Shown here: in pieces, positions 54,446 to 58,720 of the stretch | Position numbering within the stretch: the first letter of the stretch is position 1 | Layout of the letters: every line of letters begins with the position of its first letter | The notes under the pieces: model-generated | Told to the model about the DNA's origin: nothing | The model's database searches: none | Seen by the model: the letters and a program-made list of their open reading frames with translations, nothing else | Sequence record: LC739536.1 | Origin: Escherichia phage phiWec187 | Reading direction: 5' to 3' (one strand) | DNA: 64,000 bases | Position numbers and translations under genes: made by a program

Positions 54446-55573
54446 ATGAAATACACGATTTATGGTGATATTGTAAGTGTAAATAAAGATATGGGCGTGG
54501 AATCTAACTATCTTCCACCTGGATTCTATACTGTTAGTCGTGATCCCCTTGGCAATTATTTTTTAAGCCGTGGTAATCTGACAGGTGTACCGGATGTTCT
54601 GTATGGTGAAACAGAAAAACGAGCAAATCACGTTATCCGTACATTCCATCGCCGGAGTGCACAAGGTAAAAACACAGGCTTGCTTCTGACAGGAACTAAG
54701 GGCAGTGGTAAAACTATGTTAGCCAAACTCATTAGTCGTGACCTTGTAGAAGAAGGTATTCCAACTATTATGGTTACTCAAGCCTACAGTGATGCTAATT
54801 TCATTGAACTTATTAGCAAGATCACCGACAAAGCAGTGATTATTTTTGACGAGTTTGATAAAGTGTATGAGAAGAAACAAGATCAAGAAGCACTTCTCAC
54901 TTTGTTAGATGGTACTGGCAGTGGTAATAAACTGTTTATTCTGACTAAAAACAGTGGTTTTATTTCTGAATTCTTTTTAAATCGTCCTAGTCGTGTGTTT
55001 TATAATTTTAATTATGATAAAATCTCACTAGAAACTATGATTGACTATTTAGATAAAAACCTAGATAACAAAGCACACTTTGATAATTTCCAAAGACTTT
55101 GGGATGTAAGTTTAGAGTTGTCCTTTGATGTGATCCAAGGTATAGTAGAAGAACTTAATTTCTACCCTGATTTATCCTTTAAAGAATGCATCTCTATGAT
55201 GGGCGTTTCTTTGGGTGGTGGTAATAAGTGGGATATCAGCAGCGTTGTTATTAATGGGAAACTTCAGAAAGTTAGCTGGGTATCTAGTTGGCATAACTTC
55301 ACACCTGCAATCTTTTTAGGTGGTTCGTGCACACTGGACGTGTACTTGTCATCTCCAAGTGATGCAGATTCTAAAGAAGCCCTTGCTAATAGCTCTTACG
55401 TGGTTTTTGATGATGAAGGCGATGCTCGAATTCCATTGAATGCGACAAAAATGAAAGCAGATCTTATTACAGGCGGTAAAATCGTTGTGTTTAGTGATGA
55501 TCCAGAAGATTCTTTCCGTATTGTTCTGGAACCAACTATCACCAATGGTGCAACTTTGGCAAGTGTGTTTTAA
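54446..55573 (+). CDS. P-loop ATPase, paralog 2
   Basis: Walker A GTKGSGKT, Walker B IIFDEFDK; homologous throughout to 37782-38942; terminator follows. Confidence 0.6.
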   Translation: MKYTIYGDIVSVNKDMGVESNYLPPGFYTVSRDPLGNYFLSRGNLTGVPDVLYGETEKRANHVIRTFHRRSAQGKNTGLLLTGTKGSGKTMLAKLISRDLVEEGIPTIMVTQAYSDANFIELISKITDKAVIIFDEFDKVYEKKQDQEALLTLLDGTGSGNKLFILTKNSGFISEFFLNRPSRVFYNFNYDKISLETMIDYLDKNLDNKAHFDNFQRLWDVSLELSFDVIQGIVEELNFYPDLSFKECISMMGVSLGGGNKWDISSVVINGKLQKVSWVSSWHNFTPAIFLGGSCTLDVYLSSPSDADSKEALANSSYVVFDDEGDARIPLNATKMKADLITGGKIVVFSDDPEDSFRIVLEPTITNGATLASVF

Positions 55574-55647: not shown

Positions 55648-56637
55648 ATGGCAGCACCAAAATCATGGGAACAATATAAAGAAGAGTGTATACCAATAGC
55701 AGAGAGTAAGCAAATCCAAATCTTAGGATGGACGGGACAATGGAAAGGGGTCCACACAAAACTTGATTTGTTGTGCCATTGTGGTTATAAATGGGATACT
55801 ACAAGTATTAACAGTTTTAAATGTGGTAGCGGTTGTCCACAATGTAGGAGGAAGAATATAAGGAAGTCACAAACAATGTCCGACGATCAACATATTGCAG
55901 ATTTCTTTTCTACAGGGAAATTTAAGGAAGGCACTATCTTCACTAACACAGGAACACGGGGTAAAGGATGTAGGAATATTATCTGGATGGTTGAATGTCC
56001 TGTTTGCTCTCATGATGAATATGTTCAAGCAGGTGTTTGTGATGGTAAATTTTACTCTGAAGGAGATAACCTTAAACGAGGGTATATTCCGTGTCGTTGT
56101 GGGAACTATCGGTATACAGAAGACCAGATCACCTATAGGGTAAAAAAGGAAGTAGAAGGGAAAGGGTATGTCTGGGTAGATTGGATTACCAAACCCTCTT
56201 CTATAGGTAAGTTTAAATATCTTTGTCTTGTGCATGGGGAGCAGATAGGGAGTGCTCATAATTTATTAAGCCTCGGTCGAGGTTGTCCTATGTGTGCTGG
56301 TCATAGTCAGCAGCAGTTATATATTAATATTGTTAAGGATGATAATATTATAGTTGCTCTTAAGTTTGGTATAGCTAAAGATAGTGATAGACGATTAAAA
56401 ATTCAAAATAGCCGTAATATGTTTCCTATGGAGCGTATTTGTTTATATGATTTTAGCACAGTAAAACAATGTAAGGCTGCTGAAAGAGCTATAAAGAAAA
56501 AATTAAAAACTGGTATTTTAACGGAAAGAGAGTTGAAAGACGGTTATACAGAAACAGTAAGTGTTTCTGATTTGGAAAATCTTCAAAAAATTATTACACA
56601 ATATGGTGGCAAATTAGTATACAGTAAGGAGATGTAA
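55648..56637 (+). CDS. zinc-ribbon-rich protein, possible nuclease
   Basis: Repeated CxxC pairs (CGSGCPQC, CPVCSH, CRCGNY, GRGCPMC); C-terminal YINIV...KFGIAKD is weakly GIY-YIG-like. Confidence 0.35.
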   Translation: MAAPKSWEQYKEECIPIAESKQIQILGWTGQWKGVHTKLDLLCHCGYKWDTTSINSFKCGSGCPQCRRKNIRKSQTMSDDQHIADFFSTGKFKEGTIFTNTGTRGKGCRNIIWMVECPVCSHDEYVQAGVCDGKFYSEGDNLKRGYIPCRCGNYRYTEDQITYRVKKEVEGKGYVWVDWITKPSSIGKFKYLCLVHGEQIGSAHNLLSLGRGCPMCAGHSQQQLYINIVKDDNIIVALKFGIAKDSDRRLKIQNSRNMFPMERICLYDFSTVKQCKAAERAIKKKLKTGILTERELKDGYTETVSVSDLENLQKIITQYGGKLVYSKEM

Positions 56638-57189
56638 ATGCGGATTACTGATAAGTATGTGTTCTTCTTTTCAGCAAAAGATGAATTTAGCAACTGGTAT
56701 CTATCATCTTTTATTGAACCTTTAGCACCCAAGTATAATAATTCTATTACAAGTTCTGTTGAATTTACTTGTGTGGAACAATATATGATGTGGAGAAAAG
56801 CATGTTTGTTTTATGATTACAGTATTGCATCTTCTATTTTAACCGGAGATCTAAGATATACAGGAGAAAAAGAACAAGCATATTATAAGCGACTAGGCAG
56901 ATTAGTTAAAGATTATGATGAAGATACCTGGACTTCTTTACGGGAGAAGATTGTCAAACGTGGTTTGTATCTTAAATACACACAAAATGAAGATCTCAAA
57001 AATAAACTTATAGCTTACGCAGATAAGGAGTTTGTAGAGGCAAGTCCTTATGATTCTATTTATGGTATCAAAATGGGGATGTGGGATCGGGACGTGGAAA
57101 ATAAGGATTGTTGGAAAGGACAAAATCTTTTAGGAAAATGGCATACAGACCTTGCTGTTTATCTAAAAGCCCACTCTGATATTTCCTGA
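56638..57189 (+). CDS. NADAR-domain protein (YbiA-like)
   Basis: FFFS...FSNW, EQYMMWRKA, EASPYDSIYGIKMG and GQNLLGK blocks match the NADAR/YbiA pattern. Confidence 0.6.
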   Translation: MRITDKYVFFFSAKDEFSNWYLSSFIEPLAPKYNNSITSSVEFTCVEQYMMWRKACLFYDYSIASSILTGDLRYTGEKEQAYYKRLGRLVKDYDEDTWTSLREKIVKRGLYLKYTQNEDLKNKLIAYADKEFVEASPYDSIYGIKMGMWDRDVENKDCWKGQNLLGKWHTDLAVYLKAHSDIS

Positions 57190-57405
57190 TATTTTGAAAA
57201 TTTTTATTTTTATAAAAAGGGGTGTGGGTTTCATGTACGGAAATTCACCCTCTGAATAATATATTCAGAGTAAATATTATTTTGTACTCTGTTAATAAAC
57301 TATTTAATTTGTTTGTTGGATTATGATATCTGGTTTTTAAAAGGCATACTATCTCTTAACTACTATTTATAACAGAACAGTAAAATCATTTTTATAAAAA
57401 GGACA

Positions 57406-57610
57406 AAATTATTTAAAGTTTTTACAGATTTTTGGATACAAATTTTGAAAATGAAAAGTTCAAGTTTGGTCAAAATTATTTAAAGTTTTTGTATGTATTT
57501 CTATCCAGATTTTGAAAATGAAAACTTCAATTTTTTAAAAATTCCCCAGTTTATTTAAAGTTTTTTTGCCTTTTTCCGTAGAAAAATCAAAAATGAAAAG
57601 TTCAATTTCG
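57406..57610. repeat. three tandem ~65-75-bp direct repeats
   Basis: Each unit carries tatttaaagttttt then, about 20 nt later, tttgaaaatgaaaagttcaa. Confidence 0.7.
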
Positions 57611-57629
57611 TGTTTTTATAGGTGTGCGT

Positions 57630-57745
57630 ATGATAATCATTCTCATTTGTAAATGAGAATGATTATCATTTAATTATGTAAGTGATAATCATTCTCACTA
57701 AGAGAATGAGAATCATTAGCAAATGAGAATTTTTCTCATTTATAG
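57630..57745. promoter_or_regulatory. cluster of Fur-box-like palindromes
   Basis: Perfect 19-bp inverted repeat atgataatcattctcattt / aaatgagaatgattatcat (57630-57669) containing AATGATAATCATT, an exact 13-nt match to the core of the E. coli Fur box GATAATGATAATCATTATC; two more partial copies to 57745. Confidence 0.5.
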
Positions 57746-58001
57746 AATAACGCGCAGGGGTGGTGTTTGTCTCGCGCTCCCGTGTCCCCTCGCCATACAA
57801 TAAGAATAGCATAACTAACAACAAAAGCAAGCAATTATTTTTATCTTTACATTTCTTTACAAATTTATTTTAGACGAGCTACCGGCGATCAACCTTCCAA
57901 CCAGTGCCCCCTGGTATGTTAGCCCCGCCTTTACGCCGTGGGGTGGCGTTTCCTCTTCTGTATGTAAAACAGTATAAGCCCGATCCCTGGGCTTGTCAAG
58001 A

Positions 58002-58268
58002 TTATTTTTTGTTTTCTTGCCAGGATAGGACACCTAACCAAAAATACATGTCGCCCCGCGCCCCTGGCGGGATCTTGCTTTCCCCGCCGCCACTGCAAGC
58101 CCATAGATAACCATTAGCGAACGGATCAAAGTGATCTATTTCTTCCACCTTATGATCGCCCAGGTTGAGAACGGTTTCAACCTTTAAGCCCGTTGCGCTT
58201 GCTACCTGGTGCGCCGTGCCGCCTTGCCAGCCTAATGAGTGCATGAGGTGTAGAGTAGTATTTGTCAT
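58002..58268 (-). CDS. hypothetical small protein encoded in a GC-rich island
   Basis: 88-aa ORF with its own promoter and 5' hairpin-RBS architecture (gcgcc-ctggtt-ggcgc, then caaagaaaggg...ATG); GC content far above the flanks. Confidence 0.45.
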   Translation of the reverse strand: MTNTTLHLMHSLGWQGGTAHQVASATGLKVETVLNLGDHKVEEIDHFDPFANGYLWACSGGGESKIPPGARGDMYFWLGVLSWQENKK

Positions 58269-58315
58269 GGTATCGCCCTTTCTTTGATGTGCGCCCTGGT
58301 TGGCGCGGTAGAAAG

Positions 58316-58344
58316 ATAATAGCCCTTTCCTTTATAGATAGCAA
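58316..58344 (-). promoter_or_regulatory. sigma70-like promoter for the 58268 gene
   Basis: Minus-strand TTGCTA, 17-nt spacer, TATTAT. Confidence 0.45.
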
Positions 58345-58380
58345 GCAAAAAAAAGAAATGAAAAAAGATTAAAAAAGGGG

Positions 58381-58409
58381 TTGACGTTCCTCACCTGGTA
58401 GCGTATTAT
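58381..58409 (+). promoter_or_regulatory. sigma70-like promoter (divergent partner)
   Basis: TTGACG, 17-nt spacer, TATTAT. Confidence 0.5.
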
Positions 58410-58536
58410 TCATCTTGTCGAGGGGGGCGAGGCACAACGACAATAAACAAAAGGAGGGCGCAATGTAGGACGGGCAAAGGTGAGGATCTCCATAATCCAC
58501 CGTCACAATAACATTACTTATAAAAGGTTGATAACG

Positions 58537-58632
58537 ATGATCAAGAAAGAAAACAGCTTGACGGTTGGAACGATTAACGCTATCATTCTTGCCGTTCCAT
58601 TTTGGATTGTAGTTGCGGTTATTATTTTTTAA
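58537..58632 (+). CDS. small hydrophobic peptide (31 aa)
   Basis: MIKKENSLTVGTINAIILAVPFWIVVAVIIF; below the ORF-track length cutoff; weak RBS. Confidence 0.3.
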   Translation: MIKKENSLTVGTINAIILAVPFWIVVAVIIF

Positions 58633-58640
58633 AAATATTC

Positions 58641-58668
58641 TTGACAACGTTTTTTAATCTGATAAGAT
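58641..58668 (+). promoter_or_regulatory. early promoter
   Basis: TTGACA, 16-nt spacer, TAAGAT; followed by the 58681-58696 hairpin. Confidence 0.6.
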
Positions 58669-58720
58669 GTATCACATAGGGCGGCAATAGTGCCGCTCAT
58701 AACAGAAGAGAGAAATAATC

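Follow-up and report, generated by a model that had tools for sequence, protein, structure and literature searches.

The origins of phage lambda, of pSC101-type plasmids and of T7 and T4, together with the injection stop region of T5, are the described systems closest to the locus analyzed here. At the lambda origin, four iterons for the O protein are followed by an AT-rich stretch. The iterons are ~19 bp long and are repeated at ~20-bp intervals inside the initiator gene, and a strong promoter transcribes toward them. In the plasmid origins of the pSC101 type, three iterons precede inverted repeats to which the same Rep protein binds, and this layout is kept as the sequence drifts between relatives. 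The T7 primary origin and T4 oriF/oriG need no iterons; in these origins, a promoter points into directly adjacent, easily melted AT-rich DNA. In T5, the injection stop signal occupies 1.2 kb of untranslated DNA located at 7.9% of the genome and is rich in direct repeats and palindromes. Its elements keep their order among relatives, and it has repeats in common with another untranslated region (10.1101/866236). In related settings, large non-coding regions contain repeats that serve as origins (PMC7145576). For the rV5-type phages, a T7-like replisome with DNA polymerase A and a primase-helicase has been described. The rV5 authors stated that the GC skew merely follows transcription and located no origin, and their map shows a 'non-coding' box (PMC3606486).

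We analyzed a stretch of 64,000 nucleotides from Escherichia phage phiWec187 (LC739536.1), hereafter called the window, in which an array of direct repeats lies between a block of plus-strand genes and the early genes. The window belongs to a phi92-like myovirus (Justusliebigvirus, Stephanstirmvirinae), and more than 50 phi92-like myoviruses of E. coli match the 2.1 kb around the array with 96-99% identity. The array carries no annotation in the phi92 reference and is given merely as 'repeat_region' in a few records. Our literature search found no paper describing the array region. The array is part of a non-coding module of ~0.8 kb, in which GATATTT repeats, the array, Fur-box-like palindromes, a GC-rich block, a CTTTACA pair, a candidate small RNA and a leftward sigma-70 promoter follow one another (Table 1). 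The same order of elements was found in both subfamilies, Stephanstirmvirinae and Vequintavirinae, and in a more distant metagenomic relative. The array and its surrounding module are the most conspicuous conserved cis-acting DNA of these phage genomes.

Table 1. Features of the array region, in coordinates of the window
Feature	Position	Strand	Remarks
Two GATATTT direct repeats	57178..57194	+	overlap the stop codon of the NADAR gene
Hairpin CTCTGAATA/TATTCAGAG with T-rich tail	57250..57282	+	-11.2 kcal/mol, z = -2.9
Repeat unit 1	57404..57470	+	67 bp
Repeat unit 2	57471..57545	+	75 bp
Repeat unit 3	57546..57612	+	first palindrome 18 bp beyond the unit end
Box 1, TTATTTAAAGTTTTT	57409..57423, 57476-57490, 57551-57565	+	exact in 3/3 units; core ATTTAAAGTTT
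Box 2 of unit 1, TTTTGAAAATGAAAAGTTCAA	57444..57463; copies 57511-57530, 57586-57605	+	
Five 15-bp palindromes TGAkAATnATTmTCA	57631..57738		at 57631, 57654, 57683, 57707 and 57724
GC-rich block AGAATnACGCGCAGG..GGTGTTTGTCTCGCG..CGCCAT	57744..57796		conserved as nucleotides; reading frame not kept among relatives
CTTTACA-N3-CTTTACA pair	57845..57861		nearly invariant in both subfamilies; flanked by the GC-rich block and the RNA core
Candidate small RNA, structured core	57876..57964	-	transcribed leftwards, toward the array
Sigma-70 promoter TTGACA-17-TATACT	57971..57999	-	11/12 consensus matches; leftward
88-aa ORF, phrog_19316	58002..58268	-	directly upstream of the leftward promoter; 14 homologues
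First three rightward early-type sigma-70 promoters	58381..58668	+	at 58381, 58558 and 58641; divergent from the leftward promoter

Like the lambda origin, the array possesses several direct copies of a nearly palindromic site with easily melted DNA alongside, and a strong promoter transcribes toward the sites. The dimensions are different from those of lambda: six cores of 11-14 bp are paired at 46 bp in units of 67-76 bp, and these lie in non-coding DNA without a known initiator gene. The three direct units followed by palindromes, in a layout that persists despite sequence drift among relatives, resemble the pSC101-type origins. However, the array has no DnaA or IHF sites and no nearby Rep gene, its unit is three times longer, and the palindromes beside it are unlike the repeat cores. 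The array shares with the T7 and T4 origins a promoter that points toward easily melted, AT-rich DNA, and phages of this group have a T7-type replisome (PMC3606486). In contrast to those origins, the promoter is separated from the array by 350-550 bp, with the candidate small-RNA gene and the putative operators between them, and repeated sites are present. The likeness to the T5 injection stop region consists in an untranslated region of ~1 kb which lies ~8% from a genome end and borders the early genes (10.1101/866236), in direct repeats and palindromes that form a mosaic with an order more strictly conserved than the neighboring ORFs, and in motifs shared with a second untranslated region. 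This likeness is positional and architectural only. T5 belongs to an unrelated phage family, paired DnaA boxes are absent here, and the terminal repeat is 343 bp instead of 10 kb.

The three tandem direct repeats of ~70 bp on which the original prediction was based were recovered by two methods. A repeat search resolved positions 57404-57612 into three tandem units with start-to-start distances of 67 and 75 bp, and Tandem Repeats Finder, run on the window, reported 57404-57534 with a period of 67, 82% matches and a score of 185. The repetition is far beyond chance. Two boxes had been assigned to each unit. Box 1 is indeed identical in all three, whereas the 20-mer of box 2 is common to units 1 and 2 only. 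In unit 3, box 2 is atcaaaaatgaaaagttcaa, and its first five bases differ from those of the other two units. The core of box 2, AAATGAAAAGTTCAA, is found at 57449, 57516 and 57591 with 0, 1 and 0 mismatches, respectively, and starts 40 bp after the start of box 1 in every unit. No other match to box 1 or box 2 with two or fewer mismatches was detected in the 64-kb window. In the close relative AV123, with a genome of 146.8 kb, box 2 has no further match at the same threshold, and box 1 has no other exact copy and three scattered matches with two mismatches. A dispersed promoter class was rejected because the boxes are confined to a single locus of the 146.8-kb genome. A host origin of the sequence was likewise rejected, as no match to it turned up in 5,426 E. 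coli genomes.

The array was also described as AT-rich, and its A+T content is 78%, compared with 62% in the window. The nearest-neighbor stability is lowest in the window, for a length of 300 bp, at 57256-57556, and the equivalent segment of AV123 is the second least stable in that genome. With windows of 200-300 bp, the duplex stability of the array and its left flank is the lowest in the window and the second to third lowest in the genome. Single-strand folding of the array is not in excess (z = +0.37 and +0.55 on the two strands). Thus, the array is predicted to act as duplex DNA. Between 57150 and 58500, no IHF consensus was detected, and the search for DnaA boxes gave only scattered one-mismatch matches, with no consensus box in the array. 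GATC (Dam) sites are absent from the array. The A-tract phasing and intrinsic curvature are ordinary, as 13% of windows score above the array.

The 246 bp of the array are present with at least 97% identity in 55 records and with ~70% identity in Citrobacter phage Tr1 and several Klebsiella phages. Among six Justusliebigvirus genomes, variable positions were counted in the array (5 of 211), in the boxes (0 of 105), in the left non-coding flank (22 of 212) and in the palindrome cluster (15 of 133). The array is therefore about four times less variable than its flanks within the genus. By Fisher test, the difference from the left flank (p = 0.0006), that from the palindromes (p = 0.0008) and that between box and non-box positions (p = 0.03) were calculated. 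Over the array, four records labelled 'Campylobacter phage' (MG065639, MG065645, MG065656 and MG065689) share 99% identity with these E. coli phages, which looks like database mislabelling or contamination.

The 22 units of eight Stephanstirmvirinae genomes were aligned with box 1 as the anchor. The alignment has 74 gap-free columns despite differing spacers, of which ~16 central positions are unconserved, and its consensus is CCnAAATTATTTAAAgTTTTT-(variable, T-rich then A-rich)-gAAAAnCAAAATTTAAAnTTT. Each unit contains two nearly palindromic cores of ~11 bp (ATTTAAAGTTT / AAAnTTTAAAnTTT), which are centered on TTTAAA and are 46 bp apart. Box 2 occupies the register of GAAAAnCAAAATTTAAAnTTT in the relatives, the second, nearly palindromic copy of the core. 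The periods are 66-67 and then 75-76 bp in the six Stephanstirmvirinae genomes in which all three units are clear.

In the Vequintavirinae (Seunavirus, Certrevirus, Henunavirus and Mydovirus), three units with another sequence were found at the same place, with two units in one phage. Their pattern is CTCGATCG ... CGTATT ... AAAAAATTTTT, the sub-sites are always at +26 and +45/46, and the periods are 74-78 and then 63-67 bp. The geometry is retained while the sequence is replaced. This is expected for sites that are read by a co-evolving protein and is unexpected for a neutral repeat or a site of a host factor. As judged from these sequence comparisons, selection acts on the array, which is an ancient cis-element built of an unusual bipartite unit. 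The three units are probably binding sites for a sequence-specific DNA-binding protein, and the protein that reads the array is most probably encoded by the phage.

The presence of Fur-like palindromes beside the array, which was also part of the original prediction, agrees with our search: 10 matches were found in the window, against 2.4 expected. Each of the five palindromes next to the array has one or no mismatch to TGAkAATnATTmTCA (k = G/T, m = A/C), which relaxes the 7-1-7 core TGATAATnATTATCA, and they match the Fur-box consensus GATAATGATAATCATTATC at 13-16 of 19 positions. In this consensus match they resemble the Fur boxes of Enterobacteria, but, unlike these, they overlap no promoter. 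The palindromes fold strongly (z = -7.6 and -10). All enterobacterial relatives possess one to five copies at the same place. Palindromes of this type occur at only two loci of the genome, namely beside the array and in the non-coding gap with the terminal repeat (AV123 89324, 89382, 90244 and 90439). In a distant relative (L026, 8230-8340), unrelated palindromes, GTGATAGTTTC / GAAACTATTA, are found in the same place. Thus, judging from this replacement, the binder of the palindromes may be a phage protein rather than Fur.

On the side of the leftward promoter, the core of ~90 nt shows 84-86% nucleotide identity between Stephanstirmvirinae and Vequintavirinae. In its minus-strand fold, 93.7% of cells are paired, and one helix has compensatory changes in four of five pairs. 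The G-U pairs fit the minus strand only and become mismatches on the opposite strand. From this pattern, the conserved ~90 nt, which lie directly behind the leftward promoter, are read as a putative gene for a small RNA of ~90 nt or more. No Rfam family, tRNA or tmRNA matched the small-RNA region or the array. In Aeromonas phage 4L372D (Plateaulakevirus), the RNA module and its own promoter are present without array or palindromes, which suggests that the module is autonomous. The candidate is duplicated in Pectobacterium phage P7_Pc. Both hexamers of the leftward promoter are retained in the relatives compared, and the spacer is variable. No canonical minus-strand terminator was found between this promoter and the array. 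A leftward terminator at 57215-57250 was considered and rejected, as it is weak (-8.2 kcal/mol, z = -0.8). The product of the 88-aa ORF was modeled by AlphaFold2 with a pLDDT of 94, and no fold match was obtained for the model.

The array had been placed in an ORF-free region of 1.2 kb. The gap between plus-strand genes is actually ~1.5 kb (57190-58720) and contains the conserved 88-aa ORF on the minus strand, so that the truly ORF-free stretch is ~0.8 kb. On the left, the last plus-strand gene encodes a NADAR protein, and the hairpin beyond it is likely the terminator of the upstream plus-strand operon. In all relatives examined (including L017 780-870 and L016 830-870), two to four copies of GATATTT lie at the stop codon that ends the last plus-strand gene, or just past it; in the Vequintavirinae, these are followed by GAAATGGTTTTC repeats. 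In addition, TTATCTCAAA / TATCTAAC boxes are present in two to four copies upstream of the arrays of relatives (L010 2140-2180, L016 960-1080 and L018 975-1100) and about eight times in the terminal non-coding gap (AV123 89430-89690). The window has a single degenerate copy of the TTATCTCAAA type, at 57347-57358.

To the right of the module, 13 plus-strand sigma-70 promoters with at least 10/12 consensus matches, two of them with 12/12, lie between 58381 and 63934, within 5.6 kb of small ORFs. This promoter-dense stretch is a classic early, host-takeover region. Pfam gave no informative domain for 13 proteins of the early region, one of which matches DUF7249. Likewise, no DNA-binding or replication domain was detected by Pfam and NCBIfam in 18 flanking proteins. 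The AAA+ ATPase (54446-55573, L029) was examined as an initiator and rejected: its AlphaFold2 model (pLDDT 85.5) was placed by Foldseek in the Bcs1/proteasomal ATPase/NSF clade and not with DnaA, Orc or DnaC. Its N-terminal domain is a beta domain and its C-terminal domain is beta-rich, and a paralogue with 47% identity is encoded elsewhere in the same genome. Some records call this ATPase 'replicative helicase' or 'DnaC', and these labels have no support from the fold. The ORF at 55648-56637 possesses CapR and T5orf172 domains (endonuclease type). Its length is 990 bp in the window, 1173 bp in inny and 1398 bp in alia, and it is probably a mobile homing-endonuclease gene.

The original prediction named the array as a replication origin or a multi-site regulator target. 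The selection, the uniqueness of the boxes, the invariant register, the melting, the palindromes and the promoter agree with this pair of readings and do not decide between its two members. We tentatively prefer the reading that the array is an iteron-like part of a transcription-activated primary replication origin, and our confidence in it is limited. For this reading, six cores lie within ~200 bp of easily melted DNA, and an AT-rich unwinding element is adjacent to them, as at iteron origins. The term iteron-like does not extend to the classical dimensions, which are repeats of ~17-22 bp at a spacing of about two helical turns: the spacings of the 11-14 bp cores are 46, 20-29, 46, 29 and 46 bp, and the cores are not in helical phase. 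No initiator gene was recognized near the array among the AAA+ ATPase, the 88-aa ORF and the 18 flanking proteins; a novel initiator may be encoded there. The array is situated 5 kb inside the plus-strand block and not at a divergent junction. The distance of 350-550 bp to the leftward promoter also speaks against an origin, as does the RNA gene of this promoter, which stands alone in an Aeromonas phage lacking the array.

The cumulative GC skew, which the original prediction proposed as a check, did not point to the array. In AV123, the skew turns at 36.3, 72.9, 102.5 and 138.4 kb, where the direction of transcription switches. The array, at 78.2 kb, shows no inflection, and the global minimum is ~60 kb from it. 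The skew of the window has no inflection at the array either. Since the skew follows transcription, it is uninformative on the origin.

If the array is part of an origin, we infer protein binding, read-through transcription and origin function at this site, in the following manner. On infection, the conserved leftward early promoter at 57999 would be fired by the host RNA polymerase. Transcription would pass through the small-RNA region and the palindromes and on into the array; that it crosses the array is supposed because no canonical minus-strand terminator lies in between. The protein on the six sites and the transcription would together open the AT-rich DNA, and the phage replisome would then be loaded. 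The neighboring palindromes could be operators that gate the opening of the array.

A role as the multi-site target of a transcription regulator or an architectural protein, with replication not involved, explains the observations nearly as well as the origin, and we regard it as possible but doubtful. The six sites and the palindromes would be coated by a protein, either an early or middle product of the phage or a nucleoid protein of the host. The coat would act as an insulator between the early region and the plus-strand operon upstream of it, and could also silence the divergent early promoters, or redirect them, when early expression gives way to middle expression. The evidence from selection and geometry is equally applicable to such a target, the operator-like palindromes adjoin the array and also mark the only other large non-coding gap, and the array stands at the border of a terminated operon and the cluster of 13 plus-strand promoters. 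Moreover, the features specific to an origin (skew, initiator fold, and DnaA or IHF sites) were not found. However, no promoter overlaps the units, the nearest strong ones being 360-800 bp away, no regulator gene was identified among the flanking proteins, and a simple operator does not need three long bipartite units in a fixed register. It is unlikely, by comparison, that the module is a T5-type injection-stop boundary which halts entry after a terminal early-gene segment of ~12 kb. The position agrees with such a boundary: in phi92, the array is at 136,741 of 148,612, which is 11.9 kb (8.0%) from the right end, and an untranslated, repeat-rich region thus lies at the inner edge of a terminal early-gene segment of ~8%. 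The segment from the array to the end is dense in sigma-70 promoters and small ORFs, two large non-coding gaps bracket this early cluster of ~11 kb, and the palindromes and TATCTnA boxes are common to the array region and the terminal gap. Direct terminal repeats of 343 bp are annotated in phi92, and one of 342 bp was found independently in BME3 with PhageTerm (PMC12210895). In T5, by contrast, the terminal repeat is ~10 kb and the DnaA boxes are paired, neither of which is seen here; furthermore, two-step entry has never been reported for phi92-/rV5-like phages, and the figure of 8% is perhaps a coincidence.

The remaining explanations appear still less probable. The conserved early promoter aimed at the array, with no canonical terminator in its path, would also be compatible with units that act at the RNA level, as a module repeated three times in a long early transcript that runs leftward, where they might, for example, titrate an AU-binding protein of the host. 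We consider this improbable: neither strand folds in excess (z = +0.4 and +0.6), the cores that are conserved are DNA-type palindromic sites, the putative leftward terminator is weak, and the RNA module is autonomous in another phage. It is very unlikely that the units are three tandem promoters, as in T7 A1-A3, or promoters recognized by an alternative sigma factor or by a polymerase that the phage has modified. Box 1 does contain an exact TAAAGTTT, the -35 element of sigma-28 promoters, and the units are upstream of the early region. Nevertheless, a GCCGATAA-like -10 element 11 bp downstream is missing in all units and all relatives, and the units of the Vequintavirinae lack TAAAGTTT. A conserved pair of sigma-70 hexamers is also absent, apart from one 9/12 match at chance level in unit 2, and the motif is confined to one locus of the genome. 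Least credible of all are a tandem duplication that arose neutrally, a packaging (pac) site and a genome end. Slippage readily occurs in AT-rich intergenic DNA and some database records begin nearby, but the array is old and under purifying selection, the real termini, as given by the terminal repeats of phi92 and BME3, are 11.9 kb away, and the 'attL/attR' of PQ002170 is an 80-bp overlap between the two ends of the record.

Phages of the phi92, phAPEC8, rV5 and PVP-SE1 types are isolated widely, and therapy cocktails as well as model collections make use of them. For these phages, the array is a precise target of ~200 bp, also for engineering, such as origin-dependent plasmids and safe-harbour sites. 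If the T5-type boundary were true, improbable as it is, phi92-/rV5-like myoviruses would deliver the terminal 8% of their DNA, with the sigma-70-driven early genes, first, and a mode of entry so far thought peculiar to T5-like siphoviruses would extend to these myoviruses. Since the long bipartite units in an invariant register are unlike the usual iterons, the protein that reads the array may be of a new kind.
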